Assembly (NCBI GenBank): GCA_045863475.1
Contig: BTUR01000002.1
Span: 79,553 to 141,415, forward strand
Length of the DNA stretch: 61,863 nt
Direction: 5' to 3'
Source: Candidatus Campbellbacteria bacterium
Lineage (GTDB): Bacteria > Patescibacteriota > Minisyncoccia > Phycocordibacterales > EsbW-18
Part shown: positions 13,002 to 58,468 of the stretch, piece after piece
Numbering within the stretch: the stretch's first letter is position 1
Layout of the letters: every line of letters starts with the position of its first letter
Made by a program: the position numbers and the translations under genes
The notes under the pieces: model-generated
Seen by the model: the letters and a program-made list of their open reading frames with translations, nothing else
Told to the model about the DNA's origin: nothing
Database searches by the model: none

Positions 13002-15353
13002 TTAGGCCGCCTTTGCCTTGGTTTTCGTCGTCTTTGCGATTTCAGGAAGCGGTTCCACTTCACAGGTGCCGCCGGCGCAGGCGAGTTCGCGTTTTTGTTC
13101 GGTGCCGTCGGTTACTTCGTACGTGACGAGTTTTGCGTAATCAATTTCAGGGAATGCGGCAACAATTTCGTCATATCGCTTTTTATCAATCGCTTCGTAC
13201 GGTGCCATTTGATACACGTGGTCAAAGCGGGGAAGGAACGAGAGACCGCCGACGATATCCCAGTTCTTCTGAATCCAATCGACAACCGCAATCCATTCAT
13301 CTTCGCCGACAGAGATCGTTGCAGACGGATTGTGTTCGGTGTAGTTAACCTTTACGTTCTTCCAATACTCAAGCTGTTCAATGGCGGTGAAGTCATCTTT
13401 GTATTTTGAGTGTTCCGGAGACTTCACGGGGAACTCGAGCACGTACGTTGTCGCGTTGTCTACGGTTTGACCGACTTCCGGATAGTGCGGGACACCCTGG
13501 TCACGCATCATCTTGAAGAGCGAGTCTGTTGCTGAGATGCGGATACGACGAATGTAGTATTCAGAGTGACGCGGGTGAATGCCCGAAGAACAGTTGAATG
13601 TCTGCGATACCGTGCCGGAGGGCTTCACTGCGGTCACCGACATCGACGGATTTACACCGAAGCGTTTCGCATACGCTGCGTTGGTTTTCACGGCCGCATC
13701 GCGCATTGCTCGCAGGGTGCTTGGATTGCGCGACTCTTCAGCATCCCACTGACCCGTGACAGACACGCCGAGCAGTGACTCTTCGCGGCAATTATTCGTC
13801 CACTCCTTCGAGATGTACTTAAAGTTTGTCAGTGTTGATTGATAGGTGCCGAGGATTGATGCGAGCTTCGCCTTGCGCACGAGATCTTTTTTTGTGTCGC
13901 CAGCGCGCGCAATAACTTCAGAGAGGTTACAGAATTGCTTCGGCTGGAGAATAATCTCCGCACACGGATTCGTGCCGATAGTTGTCAGCATCACACCGTC
14001 TTCCGTTGCGAGTCCTTTCTTTTGGAAATATTTAAGGCGGCGCTCAGGAAGCGTTTTGTACAGTGACCCGCGGTTAAAGAGACCGCGCTCGCCGGAACCG
14101 CTCTTCATCAACGACACCCACTCTTCCATAAGCTCGGTATTTGTCGGGCGCGTCTCATAGACGGCCGAGTTGTTGGCAACCACACGCCACGGTTCTGTGA
14201 CGTAAAATCGGCCTTTTTTGGCGTCGCGCATGTCCGAATCATCCAAATCAGAGAGGGAAATCATGGCCGTGCGACGGACACCTCCGGCAACGACACACTC
14301 GCCGATTTTGCAGATGATGTCGTGTGCGTCAATTGCGCGCAAACGGCGTCCTTGTCTTTTCAGAATCTTTTCGCGTGCGAATGCGAGCAGGGAACGCAGC
14401 GGTTCCGGACCTGATGCCTTGCCGCCCATAACTTTCAGGCGTGCGCCCGCCGGACGAATCTGTGAGAAATCAAAATCAACGTCTTTTCCGGAGTACCACG
14501 TCCGCAACCCGTGCGTCAGCGAGTCGCACCAACCCTCTTTTGAGTCGGCGATGACGTAGGTCGGCAGTTTTTTACCGAGTTGCTTTTGAATTTGCGGCAA
14601 TTGTTCAACATTTTGGCTCTCAACCGCAAACCCGACACCGCATCCCTGCATGGAGAGGTACATAATCTCCGCAAAATCTTCCAGTTTCGTCGGAGCGGTG
14701 TACGTACAGTTGTATGCACACGTGTTGCATCGGCGCGCCGGTTCTCCGGCGAACTGCATGAGACGCATCGACGGCATCACTTCTTGTTTCAAAATTGCTT
14801 CGCGCACTTCCGCATATTCATTCTCTTTCAATTTCTTACCGAGGTTCTCGCGCATGAACGACATGTACCGGTCGACAGTCTCAACCCATGTCTCACGACG
14901 GTTCTCCGATTCAATCCATCGCGCGTAGGTACGCAAGTACACAAACTCACCGAGCGGATTACCTTCAAAATATTTTTTACTTTCTTCCGCGAGTTTTTTT
15001 ACGTGCTCCGGAATTTCACCTTGTTCGTAACGAATGCGTGAACGCTCAACACGATACAAGATGTATGCTTTTGCAGTCGTCGTAAACCCGAGCAACATGA
15101 GCTCCTTCTCAACTTCGTCCTGAACACCCTCAACACTCGGAATGAAGCCAGCATTGGCTTTTTTTCGGCTCACGAGTGTCTTCTCAACGGCGGCGGCAAC
15201 CTTTTGGGGTGCACCTTCTTTGTACTCTCCAACGGCCTTCATCGCCTTCTCAACAGCAACCGCAATCTTCTCAACCCGAAACGGAACAACGGTTCCGTTT
15301 CGTTTCGTGATTTTCGTAATAGTGCTGCGTCGTGAGAGAATTTTTTTTGCCAT
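13002..15353 (-). CDS. nrdJ: Adenosylcobalamin-dependent ribonucleoside-triphosphate/diphosphate reductase (class II) with an N-terminal ATP-cone
   Basis: ATP-cone (ITKRNGTVVPF), a GTNPCAEI active-site region, and monomeric class II length and architecture. Confidence 0.9.
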   Translation of the reverse strand: MAKKILSRRSTITKITKRNGTVVPFRVEKIAVAVEKAMKAVGEYKEGAPQKVAAAVEKTLVSRKKANAGFIPSVEGVQDEVEKELMLLGFTTTAKAYILYRVERSRIRYEQGEIPEHVKKLAEESKKYFEGNPLGEFVYLRTYARWIESENRRETWVETVDRYMSFMRENLGKKLKENEYAEVREAILKQEVMPSMRLMQFAGEPARRCNTCAYNCTYTAPTKLEDFAEIMYLSMQGCGVGFAVESQNVEQLPQIQKQLGKKLPTYVIADSKEGWCDSLTHGLRTWYSGKDVDFDFSQIRPAGARLKVMGGKASGPEPLRSLLAFAREKILKRQGRRLRAIDAHDIICKIGECVVAGGVRRTAMISLSDLDDSDMRDAKKGRFYVTEPWRVVANNSAVYETRPTNTELMEEWVSLMKSGSGERGLFNRGSLYKTLPERRLKYFQKKGLATEDGVMLTTIGTNPCAEIILQPKQFCNLSEVIARAGDTKKDLVRKAKLASILGTYQSTLTNFKYISKEWTNNCREESLLGVSVTGQWDAEESRNPSTLRAMRDAAVKTNAAYAKRFGVNPSMSVTAVKPSGTVSQTFNCSSGIHPRHSEYYIRRIRISATDSLFKMMRDQGVPHYPEVGQTVDNATTYVLEFPVKSPEHSKYKDDFTAIEQLEYWKNVKVNYTEHNPSATISVGEDEWIAVVDWIQKNWDIVGGLSFLPRFDHVYQMAPYEAIDKKRYDEIVAAFPEIDYAKLVTYEVTDGTEQKRELACAGGTCEVEPLPEIAKTTKTKAKAA

Positions 15354-15687
15354 AGGCCGCGGGGTTGAGCAGTTATGAATAAGTATTCCCTTATGATAGC
15401 GAACACAACCTCAAAAAAATCTGGGGATAATGCGCGACGACGCAAAAGGAATGTAAGGTCAATAGTCCCGCCGAGACGAGTGCTTTTTTTCTTGCTTCTG
15501 GGGTGGCTCAAAAATACTCTCCCGATATTTCATATTTTTTACTAAAATTAACGAAATCGGCCGCGCACCCGGAGAGGGAAGCGCGGTCGTGAAGCACCCT
15601 CCACAGGAAAAATCACCATCTATAGAAGTCTGGAAACTGCAGATATTTGACAAAGTTGTTTTCAATACAGATAACGCACAATATATG

Positions 15688-15715
15688 TTGACTTCCAGAA
15701 GGATGCGCGTACAAT
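15688..15715 (+). promoter_or_regulatory. Sigma-70-like promoter TTGACT-N16-TACAAT
   Basis: TTGACT at 15688-15693 and TACAAT at 15710-15715. No ORF with a coding signature follows. Confidence 0.55.
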
Positions 15716-15721
15716 GCACAC

Positions 15722-16417
15722 CCTGACCAGAGCACTGGCAGGTTGGGTCTGGCCCCTCGCGAGAGGCGCCAACACCTAGCCGGGCAAGCACTGGTTACAC
15801 GGGTACGGGAACGGCAGCGTGGTGCCTCCCAGAAACCTTCGGAGATGCGCAAGCAACTCCAGAGAGAAAACGTGTGTGAGCCAAAAGACCGCCTGATGAA
15901 CAAACGAGTGACCCGGGTGCAAACTCGGCAATCAAACGGAGGTTCCGGTCTGAATCACGCTAGGGATGCATGTTGGCCTGACACTTTGTCGCTCGGCGAC
16001 AAGATCAACATGTATCGTGCGGATACTGTGCGTCGAGGAGACCTAGTCTCCTTGTCCAACAGCCCGCTCCGAAACGAGCCTCGCTTCCCGCCCTTCCTGG
16101 AGGGTTTGAAGTGAAAGCACGTTCGCCTCTGAGGCAAACGAATGCCGATGTGGATCGCTCCGGCGAGACTGCGGCACTTCGGAAAGGTTCTGAGCCGTCC
16201 CAAAACGGTTCAGGGCTCGTAGGGAACAGATGAGGCCTCATCAGGAGGCATCGCTTCGGACTTCGGTTCGATTCGAAAAATCATCTAGAGGCGGCAGGTG
16301 TCCTCATGTTCCCAACGCTTCAATCTACTCCCTTCGGGGATGACAGTAGATATGTTCTTCACCCAGCTGCACAGCAGTCTGGAAGAGACCGACTCACCCG
16401 AGCCGGTCTTTTCTTTT
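15722..16417 (+). ncRNA. Unclassified large structured RNA candidate (about 0.7 kb)
   Basis: It runs from the promoter above to the terminator at 16386-16417. It contains many short GC-rich helices capped by GNRA/UUCG-type loops (GCGA, GCAA, TTCG several times). The only ORFs are Arg-rich shadow ORFs. Confidence 0.5.
16386..16417 (+). terminator. Intrinsic terminator
   Basis: AGACCGACTC (16386-16395) pairs with GAGCCGGTCT (16400-16409), followed by TTTCTTTTG. Confidence 0.7.
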
Positions 16418-16466
16418 GCCTGCTTCACATACATCTCACGACGCGCATGAAGTTGCCCGTGCTAAA

Positions 16467-17078
16467 ATGACGCGCATGGAGCACTCCGGGAAAACCGACA
16501 AGATGCGCGCGATTCGCGACGAATTGCTTTCGTTTTCCTCGTCACCTCTGTACGCATATCGAACAGCAAATAAATATTTTCCGGTCGTCGGTGAAGGCAG
16601 CCACGATGCACACATCATGTTCATCGGCGAGGCACCCGGGAAAAATGAAGCGCAGACGGGAAAACCGTTTTGCGGCGCTGCTGGCAAAATCCTGGACGAA
16701 CTGCTTGCACACATTGGATTGGATCGCGCCACCGTGTACGTCACCAACATCGTGAAAGACCGCCCGCCGGAGAATCGCGACCCGACACCTGAGGAAATTG
16801 AACTCTACGGTCCCTTTCTCGATCGACAAATTGAAATTATTCAACCGAAGGTCATCGCGACCCTCGGACGCTTCTCGATGCAGTACGTCATGGAGCGTTT
16901 GGGCTTAGGGCTCCATGTTGAACCGATTTCAGTCGCTCACGGAAAAATGTATACTGCTGTGACGTCGTACGGTGAAGTAAAGATTGTTCCGCTGTATCAC
17001 CCGGCATCCGCAATTTACTCGCGCGCGTTGTTGCCCACGCATAAAAAAGACATCGAGATTCTCAAACAATTTATATGA
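16467..17078 (+). CDS. udg: Family 4 uracil-DNA glycosylase
   Basis: GEAPG..E and GKPFCGAAGK motifs. The start was moved to the ATG at 16467, because the TTG at 16416 lies inside the terminator. Confidence 0.85.
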   Translation: MTRMEHSGKTDKMRAIRDELLSFSSSPLYAYRTANKYFPVVGEGSHDAHIMFIGEAPGKNEAQTGKPFCGAAGKILDELLAHIGLDRATVYVTNIVKDRPPENRDPTPEEIELYGPFLDRQIEIIQPKVIATLGRFSMQYVMERLGLGLHVEPISVAHGKMYTAVTSYGEVKIVPLYHPASAIYSRALLPTHKKDIEILKQFI

Positions 17079-35159: not shown

Positions 35160-36125
35160 ATGAAGAAAATCCTGCTCTCCGGCATACAGCCCTCAGGGGC
35201 GCTCCACATCGGCAACTATTTCGGCGCGCTCAAGCAATTCGTGGACCTGCAGGACCAGTATGAAAGCTTCGTCTTCGTCGCCAACTACCACGCACTCACG
35301 ACCATCCAGGATAAAGCAGTACTTGAAAAAAATACGCTTGATGTCGTCTTGGACTATCTCGCCGTGGGGCTGGACCCGGAAAAAACGACACTCTTTTTGC
35401 AATCCGACGTGCCTGAGGTTACCGAGCTGACCTGGATTTTCAACACGCTCGTCACCGTTCCATATCTCTCCCGCGCGCACTCGTACAAAGACAAAACCGC
35501 AAAAGGCATCGAAGCGACGATGGGCCTCTTCGACTACCCCGTGCTCATGGCCGCGGACATTCTGCTTCCGGGGGCCGACGTGGTGCCGGTAGGGCAGGAC
35601 CAAAAACAGCACGTGGAGTACGCGCGCGACATCGCACTGAAGTTCAACAGCACCTTCGGCGAGACATTCAAGCTTCCCGAACCGCTCATCATGGAGTCCG
35701 TGGCAGTTGTGCCCGGCACCGACGGGCAGAAGATGAGCAAAAGCTACAACAACACCATACCGCTGTTTGCCACGCGGCAGGAGATTGAGAAAGCGGTCAT
35801 GAGCATTCCGACGGACTCACAGCCGGTTGCTGCCAAGAAGGACCCGGAAAAAGATTTGGTATTTCAATTCCACAAACTCTTTGCGGGTGAGAAACTCGCG
35901 GAAATTGAACGAGGATACCGCGAGGGGGGATTGGGCTATGCGGATTCCAAGAAGATGCTCGTGGAGGAAATCGATGCGTTTATCGGCCCCTTGCGTGAGA
36001 TGCGCACCGAAATTGCCCGAGATGAGAAGCGCGTGCGCGACATTCTGCGCGAAGGCGGACGAAAGGCCCGCGCACGCGCCCAAGAAAAACTCTATGAAAT
36101 CCGCCAGAAGGTGGGGATTTTGTAG
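35160..36125 (+). CDS. trpS: Tryptophan--tRNA ligase
   Basis: PSGALHIGNY (HIGH) and KMSKS motifs. Confidence 0.95.
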   Translation: MKKILLSGIQPSGALHIGNYFGALKQFVDLQDQYESFVFVANYHALTTIQDKAVLEKNTLDVVLDYLAVGLDPEKTTLFLQSDVPEVTELTWIFNTLVTVPYLSRAHSYKDKTAKGIEATMGLFDYPVLMAADILLPGADVVPVGQDQKQHVEYARDIALKFNSTFGETFKLPEPLIMESVAVVPGTDGQKMSKSYNNTIPLFATRQEIEKAVMSIPTDSQPVAAKKDPEKDLVFQFHKLFAGEKLAEIERGYREGGLGYADSKKMLVEEIDAFIGPLREMRTEIARDEKRVRDILREGGRKARARAQEKLYEIRQKVGIL

Positions 36126-36142
36126 ATAGAGAACTGATTGCT

Positions 36143-36178
36143 GAAAAGAACAATACTCGTCGTTCTTTTCGTGTTTTT
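36143..36178 (+). terminator. Intrinsic terminator after trpS
   Basis: GAAAAGAAC (36143-36151) pairs with GTTCTTTTC (36162-36170), then GTGTTTTT. Confidence 0.7.
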
Positions 36179-36282
36179 GACAATTCTGAGAAATGTTTCA
36201 GAGATTATTTAACCATTGACTATTGTTTTAAGAGGGGTAGATTATGATCATAACTTAACAATAAACCCAAAAGAGATAGTCC

Positions 36283-37923
36283 ATGAAAATTGAACACGTT
36301 GATATTACGCCAGACCGTAGCATCTACCACAAAATTGGAGAGGCGAACTACTCGATATCCGATGCCGTCGCGGAGTTGGTTGATAATTCGATTGATGCCG
36401 CAAACGAAGACGGGGTAGAGATAGTGATTGTTTTGGATAAAAAGAATAAAAAAATTATTATTGAGGATAATGGCAAGGGAATGGACAAAGAGGTTGCGGC
36501 CAACGCTTTAAAACTCGCCCATTCACAAAAAAAGGACTCCTTGGGTGAATTTGGGCTTGGGCTTAAGTCCGCCTGTACTAGTCTTGGAAAAAAATTTCAG
36601 TTGGTCACAACCCCTAAGGGCTCACCCGAGAGTTATGTTTTAACCTACGACAGGGAACAGTTTATGAAAGAAGGTCGCTGGGACGCTTTTCCAATCTCCA
36701 TCACTGATACCGCTGAAGATAATCATGGAACAACCGTAGAAATTTCGAACCTGAAGGTAAAACTTTATGATGCCTTGGTCACCAGGTTAAAAGAAGACCT
36801 TTCACAAAGATACGGACCATTCATTCAGCATAATAATGTCGTCATAAAAGTCGGTTTACGAAATGACACCGCAAAACCCTGTACCCCCACGCCCGTAGAG
36901 TTAGATGAGGATGGTCAAGAAAATTTTGAGTATGTATTAGCAAATGGAGCAAGGGTATACGGTTGGTGGGGACTGCGAAAAGTAGCTTCTGGAACACAAA
37001 GTGGTTTCAATATCTTTCGCAGAGGACGTCTAATCAGAGCAAATGAACGCCTGGGATACAACCCACACCCCATGACCAATCACGTGTTTGGTGAAATTCA
37101 CCTCGATGCGGTCCCTGTTACTCACAACAAAAGGGAATTCATCACAGAGTCTGGGGAGTTCAGGGAATTTATAGAAAACTTTTGGGGAGATAAGACGGGG
37201 AAGTTGGTAGGGGAACGCATATCGGGGCTTATCGACAAAATAACAAAAAAGGCACAGGATCGATGGAACCAAAATAAAGCAGAAAGACAGCTTCCAGACA
37301 GTTTAAAAGAAACAGTGAAAGATAACATTCTGCGGGCGCTTAATCGTGTTGACGAGTTTAAGGAACTTGCCTTTCCGCTTCTCAATACGGCCAAGAAGAG
37401 GTCTGAGACTGGGGAATTGTTACCCCAGGAACTTCGTGAGGAGCACAAGAACGTAGCCTCGGAAGAAGACGTACAGCTTGAAATACAGGAAAACGAAAAA
37501 CGTACTCCCAAAAAAACTCAGCAAAAACGGGCTAAGTTCATCATTATAAACGGGAGAAAATTTCATTTTGATTTTTTTTGGAAAGATCTCCAAGACCCAA
37601 GTATTGATAAGGAATCTGTCACAACCGAAAACGGTGTTGAAATTTATATCAATACCGGCTTTCCGGGATTTGGTTTGTCAAAAGACTCACAATTCTACTG
37701 TGTTTTTCACGTCGCGGAGGCTATTTCTGAACTTTATCTAAAAGAAGCTGAGCAACCAATAAACAGAATGGTTGAATTACGCAACAAACTACTCAATCAG
37801 GTTGCGTCAGTTATCTTAGAAGAAGAAGAGATTCGTAAACTTGAAAAACAAGAGGAAGAACTTACAAGTATACTGGCGGAAAAAAACAGATTGAAAGAAA
37901 AAGTTCGAGCATCAAAATTATAG
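36283..37923 (+). CDS. GHKL-superfamily ATPase (HATPase_c_3 / MutL-MORC-like) with a C-terminal coiled-coil
   Basis: Bergerat-fold motifs ELVDNSIDA (N box), DNGKGM (G1) and GEFGLGLKSA (G2). The gene sits in an AT-rich island. Confidence 0.75.
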   Translation: MKIEHVDITPDRSIYHKIGEANYSISDAVAELVDNSIDAANEDGVEIVIVLDKKNKKIIIEDNGKGMDKEVAANALKLAHSQKKDSLGEFGLGLKSACTSLGKKFQLVTTPKGSPESYVLTYDREQFMKEGRWDAFPISITDTAEDNHGTTVEISNLKVKLYDALVTRLKEDLSQRYGPFIQHNNVVIKVGLRNDTAKPCTPTPVELDEDGQENFEYVLANGARVYGWWGLRKVASGTQSGFNIFRRGRLIRANERLGYNPHPMTNHVFGEIHLDAVPVTHNKREFITESGEFREFIENFWGDKTGKLVGERISGLIDKITKKAQDRWNQNKAERQLPDSLKETVKDNILRALNRVDEFKELAFPLLNTAKKRSETGELLPQELREEHKNVASEEDVQLEIQENEKRTPKKTQQKRAKFIIINGRKFHFDFFWKDLQDPSIDKESVTTENGVEIYINTGFPGFGLSKDSQFYCVFHVAEAISELYLKEAEQPINRMVELRNKLLNQVASVILEEEEIRKLEKQEEELTSILAEKNRLKEKVRASKL

Positions 37924-37964
37924 GGTGGGTATTGAATGAAAATACCGATTAAAAAATTAGATTT

Positions 37965-38801
37965 ATGAATATGACTGATACAGAAGAACAAAACCCAGAG
38001 CCTCAACTTGACCCGTATTTGGAATCACCAAAAGTCTTTCATCTTGAAATGCCCCTCTATCATTCACTCGACCTATCTGTAGGGATGGTTGCAGAGAAAG
38101 CATATGAATGGATGGCATACTCGGGTACTACGGATGCCTATTGTATTTGGTGTGGCAAGGAAAGTGTTTTTGACGCAGAGGAATACCCTTATGGGACTAC
38201 TTATGCTTCGTGGCGAAAAAGCACTAGCCTTAGACGAAACGTATATAGGTGTTCTCGTGATAACAATCATTCCTATTATGTATATTACCTAAAGAGTAAA
38301 GATATATTGCAGAAAATTGGTCAATGGCCATCTGTCGCTGATTTTCAAATTCCACAAGCAGAGAAGTATCGAAAAATTCTCGGGGATGAAGAATACAAAG
38401 AATTAACTCGTGGTATCGGGCTTGCGGCACACGGTGTTGGGATTGGATCATTTGTGTATCTCCGTCGAGTCTTCGAAAATCTGATTGAAGAAGCGCATAC
38501 GAGGGCAATGACAGAGAATAAAGGATTTTTGAATGGGGAATATCTCAAGGCGAAGATGGACAACAAAATTAAGATGGTAAAGGATTATCTCCCCGAATTT
38601 TTGGTAGAGAACCGTACTCTTTACGCAATATTGAGTACAGGTATTCACGATCTAACTGAAGATGTATGTTTGCAGTATTTTGAAACAGTAAAAATCGGCA
38701 TTGAACAAATCCTTGACGAAAAAATTACCCAGGAGGAGAAAGCTGATAAGGCGGCGAGGGCGCGCGAAGCAATTCAAAAAATATCTAAAGACCTCGCTTA
38801 G
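37965..38801 (+). CDS. Hypothetical protein with an N-terminal Cys/His (Zn-ribbon-like) segment and a helical C-terminal region
   Basis: CIWCGKE...YRCSRDNNH. No catalytic motif was recognised. Its 3' end overlaps the convergent methyltransferase gene by 17 nt. Confidence 0.5.
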   Translation: MNMTDTEEQNPEPQLDPYLESPKVFHLEMPLYHSLDLSVGMVAEKAYEWMAYSGTTDAYCIWCGKESVFDAEEYPYGTTYASWRKSTSLRRNVYRCSRDNNHSYYVYYLKSKDILQKIGQWPSVADFQIPQAEKYRKILGDEEYKELTRGIGLAAHGVGIGSFVYLRRVFENLIEEAHTRAMTENKGFLNGEYLKAKMDNKIKMVKDYLPEFLVENRTLYAILSTGIHDLTEDVCLQYFETVKIGIEQILDEKITQEEKADKAARAREAIQKISKDLA

Positions 38802-40026
38802 CCAATTCTCTTCCCAAACGTTCAATAACACCAACCACTAGAGCGTTCCCCATGAAAAACGCGCGCTTCGCGTCAGGCATGCCCACAGTATGATTATCGG
38901 GAAACATACAGAGCCTTTCGAGCTCCAACGGCGTGAGCCGACGCAATTTTCCGGATGGGGTTTTTACAACATGTTTAAAACGTGACGGGGTGGGGCCACC
39001 CTCTCCAGTGACGATGGTGCGTGATGGCCGGTCGAGATAATCGGGAAATGCCACAGGTCCTTCGTTGTAAGTGAATTCAAATCCATTTTTCCCGTTTCGC
39101 TTTTCTTTTTTGGCACCTTTGAGATATTTCCAGCGTGGTAGCTCGCTTTTAGGAATAAAGAATTCATTTGGTACCTCTTTTTCGTGTAAAAGAACGTCCT
39201 CAAGAACAGCGGGTTCACCTGCGTGGAAGGGTTTTGGGTTTGCGGTCCAAACCTTTCGGTCAAACATCAGACCTGAAATCCCAAATGGCGTTTTCCCGGG
39301 AACACCGAATCCTTTTGAAATCTCATGAAGACGGCCATCTAATTTGAAGGTTGGAAAATCTCCCTTGTGTTCCACAGGGAAGGCCCTTGCGGTCAGCCCC
39401 TTATTCACAAGCCACTCAGACGGTTCGTGTGCAAGAAGTTCTTTGTGAATTTTTGTACCCTTCTTGTATCCGAGCATGAAGACTCGACGGCGGCGTTGTG
39501 GCATACCGTAATCGGCCGCGTTGATAACTCTCCACTCAACCGCGTATCCGAGGTCAGAAAGGGAAGCGAGCATTATTGCGAAATCACGACCCCGCTGGCT
39601 AACTGGTGATTTTAGAAGCCTGTCGACATTCTCGAGCATTAAGAATTTTGGTGCACGGGAACCTTTCTCTTTGAGAATTCTGTGAATCTCCCACCAGAGC
39701 ACACCCTTCTTTCCGTTGATACCAACAGCCTGGCTTAGCGTCCTCGCCACCGAATAATCCTGGCAAGGGAACCCTCCGACGAGAAGGTCGTGGTCAGGTA
39801 TATCGTCCACATGTACTTTCGCGATATCGATGTTGGAAAATTCATTTACTGCATCCGGAAACCTAGACGCATAGACTTCGAATGCGTGTTGTCTCTTGGT
39901 CGCTGGCTCCCACTGGTTAGCCCAGACGATTTCGTACCCACGATTCTTCTTCAAACCGACGTGAAAACCACCGACGCCTGCGAAAAGCTCAGCTACTCGA
40001 ATTGGTTTTTGAACGCCCTTTGCCAT
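38785..40026 (-). CDS. dcm: DNA (cytosine-5)-methyltransferase
   Basis: FAGVGG (motif I), GFPCQDYS (IV), ENV (VI), QRRRRVF (VIII) and GNALVV (X). Confidence 0.9.
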   Translation of the reverse strand: MAKGVQKPIRVAELFAGVGGFHVGLKKNRGYEIVWANQWEPATKRQHAFEVYASRFPDAVNEFSNIDIAKVHVDDIPDHDLLVGGFPCQDYSVARTLSQAVGINGKKGVLWWEIHRILKEKGSRAPKFLMLENVDRLLKSPVSQRGRDFAIMLASLSDLGYAVEWRVINAADYGMPQRRRRVFMLGYKKGTKIHKELLAHEPSEWLVNKGLTARAFPVEHKGDFPTFKLDGRLHEISKGFGVPGKTPFGISGLMFDRKVWTANPKPFHAGEPAVLEDVLLHEKEVPNEFFIPKSELPRWKYLKGAKKEKRNGKNGFEFTYNEGPVAFPDYLDRPSRTIVTGEGGPTPSRFKHVVKTPSGKLRRLTPLELERLCMFPDNHTVGMPDAKRAFFMGNALVVGVIERLGRELAKRGL

Positions 40027-40057
40027 GTACTCAGATCCTAACATATGGTCGACATGG

Positions 40058-40071
40058 GATCAATATTGATC
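40058..40071. promoter_or_regulatory. Perfect palindrome GATCAATATTGATC in the divergent methyltransferase/nuclease intergenic region
   Basis: A 14-bp palindrome containing two GATC sites. A further GATC lies at 40034-40037. Confidence 0.4.
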
Positions 40072-40126
40072 TATTGTAAAAAGTGTTATCTAAAATTTTC
40101 CTAAAATCTTGAAAAACAAGGCCTTT

Positions 40127-40888
40127 ATGGTAACTATCGACCCGAATAAGATTAAGACACGCCAAGAGTTGCTCCGAGTAGCCAAAAAAGACCTTGAAGG
40201 CAAGACCTTGCTGCAAATCGCAAAATGGATAGGAGATAGTGATGTCATTCAGCGCGTGAACTCCAAGGCAGCGGTCGGATATGTCATCGAGGAGGGGTAT
40301 TTCGGCGTAAGAAAAAATAGCACAGCCAAACCTGATCTTGAGAAACTGGGGGTAGAAATAAAAACTAGCCCGCTCAAACAAGGAAAAGATGGGAAGTTAC
40401 GCGTCAAAGAACCGCTCTCATTAAATATCATTAACTATACCGAGGAATCGAAGAATAGGACTTTGAAAGAATCTTCTCTTTACAAGAAAAACCACAGAGT
40501 TTTATTCGTTTGGTACATACACGATTCTTCCAAAAAAAGATCGGAATATAAAATCAAATATGTTTTTCTTTGGGAGATGAGCAGTCGGGTACTCCTCGAG
40601 CTTGCACCTGACTACGAAAAAATTCTTAGAAAGATAAAAGCAGGACGAGCACATGAAATTCACCAGTCCGACCACGAGCGTCTTACTTTATGTCCTAAGC
40701 ATGGTGGTACATTCAGAGACCCAAATGATAAAAAATCGAAGGTAAAACAACCATTCAGCAACAAGCCCGCAGAAATTCGAGCGTTTCGTCTCAAGAACTC
40801 CTACATGAACCAAGTTATCTATCGCTATTTGTCGAAAGAGAGACCGGGAGAAGTGCATAATTTTGTTTCTCCCAAAAAAAATAATTAA
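40127..40888 (+). CDS. MutH/Sau3AI-family endonuclease (single-domain size)
   Basis: KAAVGYVIEE...KPDLEKLGVEIKTSP matches the MutH core G.vG.llE...D...GvElKt.P, which holds the catalytic D/E/K. Confidence 0.8.
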   Translation: MVTIDPNKIKTRQELLRVAKKDLEGKTLLQIAKWIGDSDVIQRVNSKAAVGYVIEEGYFGVRKNSTAKPDLEKLGVEIKTSPLKQGKDGKLRVKEPLSLNIINYTEESKNRTLKESSLYKKNHRVLFVWYIHDSSKKRSEYKIKYVFLWEMSSRVLLELAPDYEKILRKIKAGRAHEIHQSDHERLTLCPKHGGTFRDPNDKKSKVKQPFSNKPAEIRAFRLKNSYMNQVIYRYLSKERPGEVHNFVSPKKNN

Positions 40889-40957
40889 AAATTGTGGGTA
40901 AGGCGGGGGAACACCACCAAACCCCTGAGTGTGTTTTGAATGGTAGAATACGCGTAT

Positions 40958-41524
40958 ATGAAAACCGCAGTAATCATTCACGGCATGCCGAGTAAGGAGG
41001 AATACCTCGACCTCGCAAACCCGGCGCAATCAAACCGCCACTGGTTTCCATGGCTTCAAAAACAATTAGCCATCCGAGGCGTTGTTGCCCAATCACTTGA
41101 AATGCCCGCTCCATACGAGCCAAGGTACGAGGATTGGAAAAAGACATTTGAGCAGATGCGTGTTGATGAAGAAACCGCCCTTTTTGGACATAGTTGTGGT
41201 GGTGGTTTTTTCGTTCGTTGGCTCAGCGAGAACAAAAACCGAGTGGGAGAAGTCGTTCTCGTCGCGCCATGGATTGACCCGAACAAAGAACTGAACACAG
41301 GCTTCTTTGATTTTGAAATTGATCCAACGCTCGTTGGACGCACAAAGGGAGTGACTGTTATGTATTCAACCGACGACGACCCGAGTATTCTTGAGACCGT
41401 TCGTGTTCTCAAGGAAAAACTTCCAGACGCGACGTTCAAGGAATTCCATGACAAGGGCCACTTCTGCTCGGCAGATCTCGTCAATGACGCCTTCCCCGAA
41501 CTGCTTGAAGTCCTGGGTCTATAA
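40958..41524 (+). CDS. Alpha/beta serine hydrolase (YdeN/RBBP9-like)
   Basis: GHSCGG nucleophile elbow in a protein of about 190 aa, with a C-terminal DKGHF. Confidence 0.65.
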   Translation: MKTAVIIHGMPSKEEYLDLANPAQSNRHWFPWLQKQLAIRGVVAQSLEMPAPYEPRYEDWKKTFEQMRVDEETALFGHSCGGGFFVRWLSENKNRVGEVVLVAPWIDPNKELNTGFFDFEIDPTLVGRTKGVTVMYSTDDDPSILETVRVLKEKLPDATFKEFHDKGHFCSADLVNDAFPELLEVLGL

Positions 41525-41560
41525 ACTACAAGCTTTTCTGGGGTGGTAGAATAGGGGAAT

Positions 41561-41818
41561 ATGAATCTTGAACAGGAGTTGCAGGAAATCAAGGAGCGCA
41601 ATAGACGCGTAGAGGGCGACAAAGCTTGGGAAACAAGTGGGTTGCGCGCGTTTGTCATCGCACTGGTTACATACGTTGTCGCTGTTGTGGTTTTATACCT
41701 CGTGGGTGCCTCAAAAATCTTTCTAAGCGCGCTTGTTCCCGTGCTCGGTTTCTATATTTCCACATTGTCTCTTCCTGCAATTAAACGTTGGTGGCTTAGA
41801 AAAAGAGACTTCTCTTAG
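41561..41818 (+). CDS. Small two-TM membrane protein
   Basis: 85 aa with two hydrophobic helices after a charged N-terminus. Confidence 0.45.
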   Translation: MNLEQELQEIKERNRRVEGDKAWETSGLRAFVIALVTYVVAVVVLYLVGASKIFLSALVPVLGFYISTLSLPAIKRWWLRKRDFS

Positions 41819-41823
41819 AGATT

Positions 41824-42207
41824 ATGAAAACAATACTCGTTGATGCGGTATTCGTGTTCGTAGACAAAGAAGGAAATATTGCCACGACGCTCCACGAGCT
41901 TTTGGAGACGTACCCGAACCGGAAAATCCTGCTCACTGGCGCTGATGATGAGCAGTTTAAAATGTGGAAACTCGACACAATGCCGTACGAAGTGTTTACC
42001 CTCAAACATAATCCCGAAAAATCAGATCCTTCGTACTATCGAAAGATGTTGGAGCACTTTGGTCTCTCCGCAAACGATGTGGTGTATTTCGAACACAGTC
42101 CCGACGCAGTTAAGAGTGCTCAATCAATCGGCATTACTTCGTACTACTACGACCACGAAAAACGCGACTTGTCGGCTCTTAAATCATTCTTAGACAAAAA
42201 TCTGTAG
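41824..42207 (+). CDS. HAD-superfamily hydrolase-like protein (short)
   Basis: VFVFVD-like N-terminus with a later FEHSPDAVKSAQSIG segment. Weak call. Confidence 0.45.
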   Translation: MKTILVDAVFVFVDKEGNIATTLHELLETYPNRKILLTGADDEQFKMWKLDTMPYEVFTLKHNPEKSDPSYYRKMLEHFGLSANDVVYFEHSPDAVKSAQSIGITSYYYDHEKRDLSALKSFLDKNL

Positions 42208-57696: not shown

Positions 57697-57972
57697 ATGG
57701 CACATAGGAAAGCCGGAGGAACAGCTAAAAACCTGCGCGACTCAAACCCAAAATTCTTGGGTGTTAAAATCGCAGACGGACAGAAAGCTAAGCCGGGGGC
57801 AATCATCGTCCGCCAGCGCGGCACACGCATCGAGGCTGGAAAGAACGTCCGTATGGGTAAAGACCACACGCTCTTCTCAACGGCAAACGGCACGGTGAAA
57901 TTCCGCATGAAGCGCGTTGTGCGTTTCAACGGCACACCCGCCCGTCAGAAGATTGTAGACGTGCTCGCATAA
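57697..57972 (+). CDS. rpmA: 50S ribosomal protein L27
   Basis: [24 protein letters not shown] start. Confidence 0.95.
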
Positions 57973-57981
57973 AGAAAACTT

Positions 57982-58011
57982 AAAAGGCCCGCTCGAGAGA
58001 GCGGGCCTTTT
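57982..58011. terminator. Bidirectional intrinsic terminator between rpmA and rplI
   Basis: GGCCCGCTC pairs with GAGCGGGCC, with a GAGA loop, flanked by AAAA and TTTT. Confidence 0.85.
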
Positions 58012-58021
58012 CGTATTCGTA

Positions 58022-58468
58022 TTATTTCTGAGCCTCAACGCGGACGGTAATCGTTCCCATGATGTTGCCGATACCAACTTTCATCTGTGTATCCCCCACT
58101 TCTTTGATGGGGTGGTCCAGGTGCATGCAGTCCGGCGGAATCTCCACGCCGAGTTGGTCGTACGCGCAACTCGCAATGCGCTCTTTGTGTAATGCGCCGA
58201 AGAGGTGTCCTTGTTCATTTACTTTCTCACTAATCGTCACCGTCTTTCCGTCAATTTTTTTGATACAGTGTGCAACTTGCTCCTCATGCATGACTTTCTT
58301 CTCCGAGAGTTCTGCTTTTCGCTGTGCAACCATCGCGCGCGTCGCCGGCGTTGCTGCCTGTGCGAGCCCTTGCGGGATAAGGCAGTGAAGCGCGTAGCCG
58401 TCAGCGACGGTTACAATGTCAAAACGCTTTCCAACTTTTGCGACGTCTTTGAGTAATACGACTTCCAT
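58022..58468 (-). CDS. rplI: 50S ribosomal protein L9
   Basis: MEVVLLKDVAKVGKRFDIVTVADGYA start. Confidence 0.93.
   Translation of the reverse strand: MEVVLLKDVAKVGKRFDIVTVADGYALHCLIPQGLAQAATPATRAMVAQRKAELSEKKVMHEEQVAHCIKKIDGKTVTISEKVNEQGHLFGALHKERIASCAYDQLGVEIPPDCMHLDHPIKEVGDTQMKVGIGNIMGTITVRVEAQK

Follow-up and report, generated by a model that had tools for sequence, protein, structure and literature searches.

A putative family of large, structured non-coding RNAs upstream of uracil-DNA glycosylase genes in a small clade of Patescibacteria

Introduction

In a stretch of 61,863 nt from a Candidatus Campbellbacteria bacterium (contig BTUR01000002.1; the whole stretch is called the window here), a gap of 1.06 kb raises the question of what it encodes. 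It is bounded on its left by nrdJ (open reading frame (ORF) 13002-15353, minus strand) and is followed by the gene for a family-4 uracil-DNA glycosylase (UDG), whose ORF has its opening at 16416 on the plus strand and its likely true start at ATG 16476. A preliminary description had proposed that the gap is devoid of credible ORFs and harbors a structured RNA of about 0.7 kb with its own promoter and terminator. Few bacterial RNA classes are this long and elaborately folded, and the large classes established earlier are either central machines (ribosome, RNase P, transfer-messenger RNA (tmRNA), self-splicing introns) or open problems (OLE, GOLLD, ROOL, raiA). Our answer is that the region from ~15722 to 16417 on the plus strand is probably an independently transcribed non-coding RNA gene of ~700 nt that belongs to a family not described before. 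The proposed RNA gene is thus retained as real; it is not a one-off, however, but one of a small family that evolves fast and is linked to UDG.

Results

Homologous RNAs upstream of UDG

Homologues were sought on the contigs encoding the closest UDG proteins (given as L numbers); the sequence covered comprises the 62-kb window and 3-9 kb of each related contig. Named relatives of the window UDG protein come from Campbellbacteria, Paceibacterota, and other Patescibacteria. Wherever UDG identity was at least 86% (L008-L010, L011, L012, L054), a gene-free gap of 0.8-1.0 kb was found directly upstream of, and co-oriented with, UDG, and both gap and RNA were missing at this place in relatives with UDG identities of at most 82% (L003-L007, L013, L014). 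A blastn search of the window region against the relatives returned only identical contigs and a 53-nt element upstream of nrdJ; since the homologues are too diverged for blastn, they were located by synteny and then by hidden Markov models (HMMs) and covariance models. A multiple alignment connects the gaps through common promoters, terminators, and the motifs GGCCWGRCASTT, AAAAUCRUC, and CUSAYGWUCC. Homologous RNAs were thus placed upstream of UDG in five other contig sets (L008-10, L011, L012, L051, and L054), with fragments in L055/56, and across three different gene neighbourhoods they always lie directly upstream of UDG and in the same orientation.

The window sequence was left out of the models with which it was searched. 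An HMM of the whole RNA, built from the five other members, matched window positions 16115-16417 (E = 2.4e-6). Three covariance models of single regions, whose domains are listed below, gave collinear matches that all lie on the plus strand: R1 (domain E) had a single window match at 16182-16320 (43.1 bits, E = 8e-10), R2 (hairpins b4 and c1) had its best window match at 15883-16023 (13.9 bits), and R3 (hairpins b1-b4) matched 15797-15963 (20.1 bits, E = 4e-4 in 183 kb with filters off). Furthermore, both DNA patterns derived from the motifs (GGCCWGRCASTT; AAAAUCRUC...CUSAYGWUCC) match the window once, with 0 matches expected. The features that define the family, namely collinear b1-b4, c1, and E junction, two long-range contacts (PK1 and PK2), and an own promoter and terminator upstream of UDG, are all found in the window, and these comparisons indicate that the window copy is a true family member.

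Searches beyond these contigs added little. A pattern combining two motifs gave 38 matches in GTDB species genomes, 37 of them chance matches and 1 a true member with the same synteny (L051). A second pattern, which fits every known member including L054, which had not been used in its design, gave 0 matches in a metagenome contig collection that is evidently without this clade. At 80 metagenome loci with UDG identities of 61-69%, no RNA was found by nhmmer, covariance model, or gap size, and the sole large gap among them (L111) proved to be AT-rich and unrelated. Neither pattern matched anything in viral contigs, and blastn found nothing in phage and plasmid collections. When an 82-aa spurious ORF called on the L054 RNA was used as a query, it returned itself and one relative at 94% identity. 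Within the window, no second copy of the RNA was found. As far as these searches reach, the family appears to be confined to one small clade of the ultra-small Patescibacteria and to be rare in public data.

A conserved fold

Minimum free energy (MFE) folding of 15720-16417 on the plus strand gave -298.9 kcal/mol, with a z-score of -9.8 against dinucleotide shuffles; the minus strand of the same region reached z = -2.3. The assignment of the RNA to the plus strand was made because of the orientation of promoter and terminator, the covariance-model matches, and the excess of G-U over A-C combinations described below. The five helices listed in the preliminary description were all recovered where it had placed them, and the elements of the fold are as follows.

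15721 to 15803, plus strand: hairpin A, long and irregular, with the 5'-terminal bases in its closing helix and GGCCCCUC-GCGA-GAGGCGCC (15751-15770) as its cap; MFE folds
15806 to 15832, plus strand: hairpin b1, with its loop AGCGUGGU (15816-15823) in PK1; R3 alignment, 4 of 5 helix-1 pairs covary
15841 to 15860, plus strand: hairpin b2, with a conserved GCAA (GNRA) tetraloop; R3 alignment, 6 of 12 pairs of helix 4 compensatory
15886 to 15951, plus strand: hairpin b4, AGACCG/CGGUCU and GAAC/GUUC with a 6-nt bulge between them; R2 and R3 matches
15954 to 15961, plus strand: junction AUCACGCU, the 3' partner of PK1; 8 contiguous pairs with the b1 loop 15816-15823
15965 to 16016, plus strand: hairpin c1, a long helix with the apical stem UUGUCGC-UCG-GCGACAA; R2 match 15883-16023
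16019 to 16176, plus strand: d1-d4, the variable middle domain with four hairpins, among them CGAGGAGAC-CUA-GUCUCCUUG; MFE folds and alignments
16186 to 16218, plus strand: hairpin e0, with an A-rich loop (AAAACG); R1 match, 3 of 9 pairs of helices 1-2 compensatory and 98-100% of cells paired
16222 to 16313, plus strand: domain E, a four-way junction with the closing helices GGGAAC/GUUCCC and GAUGA/UCAUC and hairpins hp1-hp3; R1 match
16324 to 16382, plus strand: 3' hairpins f1 (CUACU...CCC-UUCG-GGG...AGUAG) and f2 (CCAGCUGC-ACA-GCAGUCUGG); MFE fold

MFE folding gives every member a long 5' hairpin equivalent to hairpin A, and the closing helix of this hairpin covaries by eye, with UGACCAG/CUGGUUA in the window and UGAGAC/GUUUCA in L051. 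Several GCAA tetraloops are conserved across members; that of b2 is retained in 5 of 6, and the variable tip of b4 bears a GCAA hairpin at 15912-15928. Hairpin b4 itself is paired in 100% of cells, with compensatory changes at 7 of its 10 pairs, and its bulge region CCUGAUGA (15892-15899) is one partner of PK2. In c1, 11 of 19 pairs are compensatory, a conserved internal loop (GGCCUGACACUU) occupies 15975-15986, and the GGCCWGRCASTT motif is common to all members. The d1-d4 domain varies in size and content from member to member (d1 and d2 are absent from L008), and its conservation is only partial, comprising CGAAAC and a UCGC-UYCG-GCGA cap. Domain E, which carries AAAAUCRUC and CUSAYGWUCC, is the best-conserved part of the RNA, and its hp1 loop UCAUCAGG (16238-16245) supplies the 3' side of PK2. 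In L008 (3786-3867), an insertion of ~80 nt in the E domain holds a second copy of e0 (CUCCGAAUCAGUCAAACGAAUCGGAG), an internal duplication of a structural module.

Covariation and long-range contacts

Covariation was assessed in alignments of six sequences guided by the models, and the slid-control and shuffle tests were applied to domain E and to b1-b4, b4 plus c1 being evaluated by direct counting. Domain E has 95.6% of its cells paired and compensatory changes at 11 of 41 pairs; in the b1-b4 domain, the corresponding values are 94.1% and 20 of 35. Slid controls reached 28-42% and 25-45%, respectively, and in both cases 0 of 500 shuffles reached the observed value. For b4 plus c1, 97.7% of cells are paired, with 18 of 29 pairs compensatory. 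The overall tally of modelled pairs with compensatory changes is 49 of 95. When each of these 95 pairs was counted once, the cells comprised 477 Watson-Crick, 39 G-U, 9 A-C, and 17 other combinations, and therefore, with G-U in excess over A-C (39:9), fit the plus strand. Conservation of the structure, on which the preliminary description had made its claim depend, is strong: three models built without the window find it, with 94-98% of cells paired as against 25-45% when slid.

Two long-range contacts were identified, and they were assessed by comparing matched with mismatched partners and by shuffling, as the covariance-model alignment shifts the unpaired junction of the window by two columns. 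PK1 joins the b1 loop to the junction between b4 and c1 through 8 contiguous pairs in the window (AGCGUGGU, 15816-15823, with AUCACGCU, 15954-15961); in the other members, UUGUGCAAU in the b1 loop faces AUUGCACAG in the junction. PK2 joins the 6-nt bulge of b4 to the hp1 loop of the E junction through 8 bp (CCUGAUGA, 15892-15899, with UCAUCAGG, 16238-16245), the counterpart in the other members being AUGGGU/ACCCAU. In the window alone, the shuffle P value is 0.009 for PK1 and 0.0014 for PK2. Each allele type forms 6-9 contiguous pairs in PK1 and PK2, even though the window sequences are wholly unlike the rest. For PK1, matched partners score 7.5 and mismatched ones 3.5-5; across the contacts, partners from the window allele reach 7.5-8 pair-equivalents when matched as against 3-5 when crossed with other allele types.

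Because these two long-range loop-loop pairings covary, the RNA is modelled as a compact fold rather than a string of independent hairpins. The structured RNA proposed in the preliminary description is thus retained, whereas its picture of a mere row of hairpins is not, given two covarying pseudoknot-type contacts. A third long-range pairing, between the c1 internal loop and the hp3 loop, gave similar scores for matched and mismatched partners (P = 0.04-0.44) and is not claimed. Likewise, a helix closing the 5' and 3' ends that was suggested by RNAalifold (P1, CCUCCUG/CAGGAGG) is unsupported in the window and in the recombinant L054, and the 5' end closes hairpin A instead.

A probable transcription unit separate from UDG

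The following signals were found around the RNA and at the start of UDG.

15647 to 15675, plus strand: upstream element TTGACA-N17-GATAAC; read from the sequence
15688 to 15715, plus strand: main sigma-70-type promoter, -35 TTGACT, N16, -10 TACAAT; promoter scan, 10 of 12 matches
16383 to 16417, plus strand: intrinsic terminator AGACCGaCUC-ACCC-GAGcCGGUCU followed by UUUUCUUUU; MFE fold, 12-bp stem
16460 to 16478, plus strand: UDG's own predicted promoter, extended -10 TGcTAAAAT (16460-16468) with ATG 16476; sequence

The main promoter, already named in the preliminary description, was recovered by the scan. Such a site is expected by chance 1.3 times per 2 kb, so that a single one is at about chance level; in an alignment of four sequences (the window, L008, L011, and L012), however, its key positions, TTGAC and TAnAnT, do not vary. 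The RNA would start at about 15722. Upstream of this promoter, a TTGAC-N17-G(A/T)(T/C)A(A/G)C arrangement is also found in L008, L011, L054, L051, and L012. This upstream element, the -10-like hexamer of which is devoid of the usual final T, may represent a second promoter or a regulator site. The terminator, which had been described at 16386-16417, extends over 16383-16417 in the MFE fold; a simple terminator scan did not list it, as its stem carries a 1x1 mismatch. All homologues have a terminator at the equivalent position, with stems that differ in sequence, are self-complementary, and covary.

The ATG of UDG at 16476 sits 7 nt past the -10 hexamer, a spacing as for a leaderless mRNA. The same arrangement, TGnTA(C/A)(T/A)AT followed by 6-7 nt and ATG, is present in L054, L008, L011, L012, and L051, and the extended -10 (TGnTAAAAT or TGnTACTAT) also precedes UDG in L014, a relative without the RNA. 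Throughout the clade, a leaderless UDG mRNA is thus apparently produced from an extended -10 promoter that has no -35. Since a promoter of its own is predicted for UDG, also where the RNA is missing, the RNA would be a separate transcription unit, and we infer that the segment from ~15722 to 16417 on the plus strand is transcribed independently.

Coding capacity and known RNA families

The RNA locus is predicted to be non-coding, because no gene was called in the gap on an identical public contig (L001), no reading frame is conserved among the members, their similarities being scattered over all frames and both strands, and the window ORFs in the gap have no Pfam match. The earlier impression of a gap without a credible ORF was thus borne out, and no conserved small-protein signal emerged.

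Rfam 15, searched permissively, gave only noise at E<=10 on 15300-16600 and nothing relevant over the whole window, with RNase P scores under about 12 bits falling outside the matches listed here, while Lui et al. needed a 5-bit cutoff for some forms from the candidate phyla radiation (CPR) (PMC8172020). In that study, default thresholds failed to detect the RNase P RNAs of 10 out of 35 circular CPR genomes, and some of these RNAs had large helix extensions or lacked helices (PMC8172020). No Rfam match was obtained at E<=1 on the loci of L008, L011, and L012 or at E<=10 on the 736-nt RNA of L011. The proposal that the RNA lies outside the known large classes (RNase P, tmRNA, group I/II introns, GOLLD, ROOL, OLE, raiA, HEARO) therefore agrees with the Rfam 15 results. 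In accordance with the earlier failure to see a tmRNA tag or transfer RNA (tRNA)-like end, ARAGORN found 0 genes and Rfam no tmRNA match, and the universal RNase P motif is absent from the window, a stretch resembling conserved region I (CR-I), GGAAAGUC, being found only in L011. For group I/II introns, there was no Rfam match and no reverse-transcriptase or maturase ORF, the core motifs not having been searched by hand. A tRNA interrupted by an intron was also considered and discarded, as no tRNA halves lie at the RNA ends and ARAGORN was negative. Full-text literature searches turned up no account of an RNA like this one from Patescibacteria.

Rapid sequence turnover and exchange of alleles

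Between the window and its closest relative L054, UDG DNA is 92% identical and the RNA only 51%, and the segment from f2 to the terminator is the only one in which the two RNAs are alike at the sequence level. Between L054 and L051, the values are reversed, with 81% identity for UDG DNA and 91% for the RNA. The RNA of L054 (1681-2452) is a three-way mosaic of an L051-like body, L011-like b1-b3, and a window-like last ~60 nt. On these sequence comparisons, RNA alleles have evidently been exchanged between strains by recombination, and the RNA changes faster in sequence than the neighbouring coding gene while its pairing is kept. The window allele, to judge from its divergence, must come from a lineage not yet sampled, and therefore the family probably extends beyond what could be reached by searching with exact patterns.

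In every relative examined, a gene for a PIN_4 plus PhoH ATPase protein (PhoH-PIN) lies between nrdJ and the RNA or UDG (L008:1604-3088, L054:25-1491, L004:2366-3760), and relatives carry it side by side with the RNA. No remnant of PhoH-PIN was detected in the gap by tblastn with two proteins (15354-15690 compared); the sole overlap with the gap had E = 4.8 and lies on the plus strand, whereas PhoH of the relatives is on the minus strand. In the window, the loss of PhoH-PIN and the exchange of the RNA body for a highly divergent allele coincide. A GC-rich hairpin located between the RNA promoter and nrdJ (GGCCGCGC...GCGCGGTC, 15559-15588) is followed by a T-rich run on the minus strand and may be a leftover terminator of the lost PhoH-PIN gene.

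Genomic surroundings

The other genes of the window are housekeeping genes, including those for PriA, MreB, endonuclease III, nrdJ, pepF, AlaRS, S4, RpoA, and DnaK; the RNA locus lies in a chromosomal housekeeping stretch and not in a mobile island. Across the whole window (1-61863; 62 kb, a housekeeping region), ARAGORN found 0 tRNA or tmRNA genes and no Rfam 15 family reached its gathering threshold. The 53 nt upstream of nrdJ at 15413-15465, which are 77% identical to the corresponding region of L004-L007 and have no Rfam match, are probably a promoter or a control element in the 5' untranslated region of nrdJ, possibly with an NrdR-box-like site. GC content is 0.40-0.49 at 36001-42000, compared with about 0.52-0.56 elsewhere in the window, and this segment could have been acquired horizontally. 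Weak matches to Thr_leader and BTnc231 at 57934-58080, on both strands and at 25-26 bits (below cutoffs), most likely reflect a bidirectional terminator-like palindrome rather than either family.

Discussion

The comparisons show an RNA that consists of a long 5' hairpin, the four-hairpin domain b1-b4, c1, a variable middle domain, and the 3' four-way junction E, with at least two long-range loop-loop pairings, within the 5' half and between this half and the 3' junction. According to the reading we favor, it would be made as a stable, probably abundant transcript and would act in trans through its three-dimensional shape; by analogy with OLE, ROOL, and GOLLD, its role would most likely be that of a scaffold or core of a ribonucleoprotein (RNP), or of a self-assembling or catalytic RNA. 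It would be neither the message nor the leader of UDG, and its constant site upstream of UDG would more likely reflect historical linkage or interplay at the promoter level than co-transcription. Several points weigh against this reading. The transcript, its ends, and its abundance are predictions from sequence. Only six distinct sequences are at hand, about five of them independent and two nearly identical, so that few lineages underlie the covariation counts, which also depend on alignments that were fitted to the models. For L051, the two strands have z-scores of -3.5 and -5.5, and the RNA strand is not the favored one. No gene for a partner protein is consistently linked, which leaves a trans-acting scaffold, assembly, or ribozyme role without direct support, and UDG as the sole constant neighbour could point to a role in cis or at the promoter level. 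Finally, very fast turnover within one small clade could mark a dispensable element.

The close tie to UDG would also suit a giant cis-acting leader, attenuator, or insulator of the UDG gene or operon, in which the RNA would form the 5' portion of the UDG mRNA or its transcription and termination would control UDG by read-through or promoter occlusion: the RNA has a constant, co-oriented position directly upstream of UDG in three gene neighbourhoods, and its terminator ends about 20-45 nt before the UDG -10, so that the signals overlap within RNA polymerase footprints. However, a conserved extended -10 with a leaderless start is predicted for UDG itself, likewise in relatives devoid of the RNA; the terminator is strong, with no alternative anti-terminator pairing seen; and UDG has remained 92% identical across the exchange of the RNA body for an allele with only 51% identity. 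Moreover, we know of no 700-nt leader with a tertiary structure made of kissing loops, and we regard this explanation as unlikely. An even smaller probability is given to the main known alternative, an RNase P RNA that has diverged to an extreme degree and bears large helix extensions. Such RNAs are on record as missed in CPR genomes at default thresholds (PMC8172020), the 62-kb window has no other RNase P RNA (which says little), L011 has GGAAAGUC followed by CCAUGGG, and the family stretch AGAAUCCGGCC resembles CR-V. Nevertheless, no RNase P model matched at E<=10 on the 1.3-kb region or the L011 RNA, nor at E<=1 on three homologous loci. The CR-I-like GGAAAGUC is confined to L011, where it falls in the loop and 3' strand of the local hairpin b3, and its site reads GACAGUC, GAACGUC, or GGAAGUC in other members, while the window has none. 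Similarly, the CR-V-like AGAAUCCGGCC is not a P4 strand but makes up one side of the local helix c1, which covaries (window sequence GCAUGUUG/CAACAUGU). In overall topology, hairpins follow one another and are joined by kissing loops as opposed to nested P1/P2/P5/P7/P10, and an identity of 51% for the RNA against 92% for UDG, allele swapping, and absence from the locus in sister lineages are a poor fit for an essential universal enzyme.

Exchange and patchy presence would suit a selfish or mobile RNA element or its remnant, be it a free-standing group I/II-like ribozyme or another insert spreading by recombination. The presence/absence polymorphism between sister clades takes the form of an extra block of ~830 bp between the PhoH and UDG promoters, alleles are mosaic, the RNA gene tree is discordant with UDG, group I introns are abundant in CPR genomes (PMC8172020), and self-splicing introns typically have GNRA tetraloops and contacts between loops. 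Yet no intron family matches; no host gene or exons, intron-encoded protein, transposase, integrase, or repeats lie nearby; the RNA has its own promoter and terminator; and it occupies one locus only, with no second copy in the window and none in viral contigs, phages, or plasmids, so that we consider this origin highly improbable. The remaining explanation denies a functional RNA altogether and sees in the gap a decayed protein gene (e.g., PhoH-PIN) or a GC-rich spacer that folds by chance. In its favor, the PhoH-PIN gene that relatives have between nrdJ and UDG is absent from the window, and sequence turnover is very fast. Against it, tblastn detected no PhoH-PIN remnant in the gap, its only overlap (E = 4.8) being on the wrong strand; RNA and PhoH coexist in relatives; promoter and terminator are conserved while no frame is; and pairing survives dozens of double substitutions. 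Because this covariation contradicts it, we hold this explanation to be extremely improbable, and the reading as an independently transcribed RNA gene is retained.

The family is a test case for RNA evolution, since alleles that are 51% identical keep their helices and kissing loops in nearly identical genomic backgrounds, and therefore structure prediction, cryo-electron microscopy, and swap experiments would be directly interpretable. Patescibacteria have tiny genomes with little spare DNA. An RNA gene of 0.7 kb is unlikely to be idle in them, because the genomes are so small and because dozens of compensatory changes and two or more long-range contacts have been maintained. A bolder version, which we put forward only tentatively and consider rather doubtful, is that the family is a new class, specific to CPR/Patescibacteria, of large RNA machines with tertiary structure (a ribozyme, an RNP core, or a self-assembling RNA like ROOL/GOLLD), whose alleles are swapped between co-occurring strains while the shape is preserved. 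If true, this would imply selection on the fold together with a diversifying or frequency-dependent pressure, e.g., from interaction with phages or a host. If the RNA nevertheless turned out to be a strongly diverged RNase P, the range recognized for that enzyme would widen.

Comparison with known RNA classes

With a diverged CPR RNase P RNA, the family shares large size, extensive structure, escape from Rfam thresholds, pseudoknot-type pairings, and, in some members, CR-I- and CR-V-like stretches. In contrast, the universal CR-I (GGAAAGUCC), CR-V (ACAGAAnnCGGCUUA), and P4 pseudoknot are not conserved across the family, the topology differs, evolution is far too fast, and the RNA is missing from sister lineages. 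Group I introns, which are common in the rRNA and tRNA genes of CPR bacteria, are similar in size range and in having several GNRA tetraloops, loop-loop kissing contacts, and multi-way junctions, whereas the present RNA has no host gene or exons and no match to Intron_gpI, possesses its own promoter and terminator, and shows no identified P3-P7 core or G-binding site. Like tmRNA, it is structured and several hundred bases long, contains several pairings of the pseudoknot type, and is flanked by a promoter and a terminator of its own, but it has neither tRNA-like ends nor a tag reading frame.

The large ornate bacterial RNAs range from raiA (~200 nt) through ROOL (~580 nt) and OLE (~600 nt) to GOLLD (~800 nt). 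The present RNA resembles them as a stand-alone gene of hundreds of bases that does not code for protein, has no known biochemical role, and is patchily distributed; it likewise shows long-range contacts, GNRA tetraloops, and many helices that are conserved. OLE, ROOL, and GOLLD work, or at least assemble, as shaped RNAs and are described in one source (PMC12286853) as forming homo-oligomeric complexes. The family differs from these RNAs and from raiA in being negative with their covariance models, in coming from a different phylum (Patescibacteria), in having no prophage or oapA-type neighbourhood, and in its much narrower distribution and much faster sequence divergence. It is nearest in kind to OLE, ROOL, and GOLLD, yet a member of none of them.

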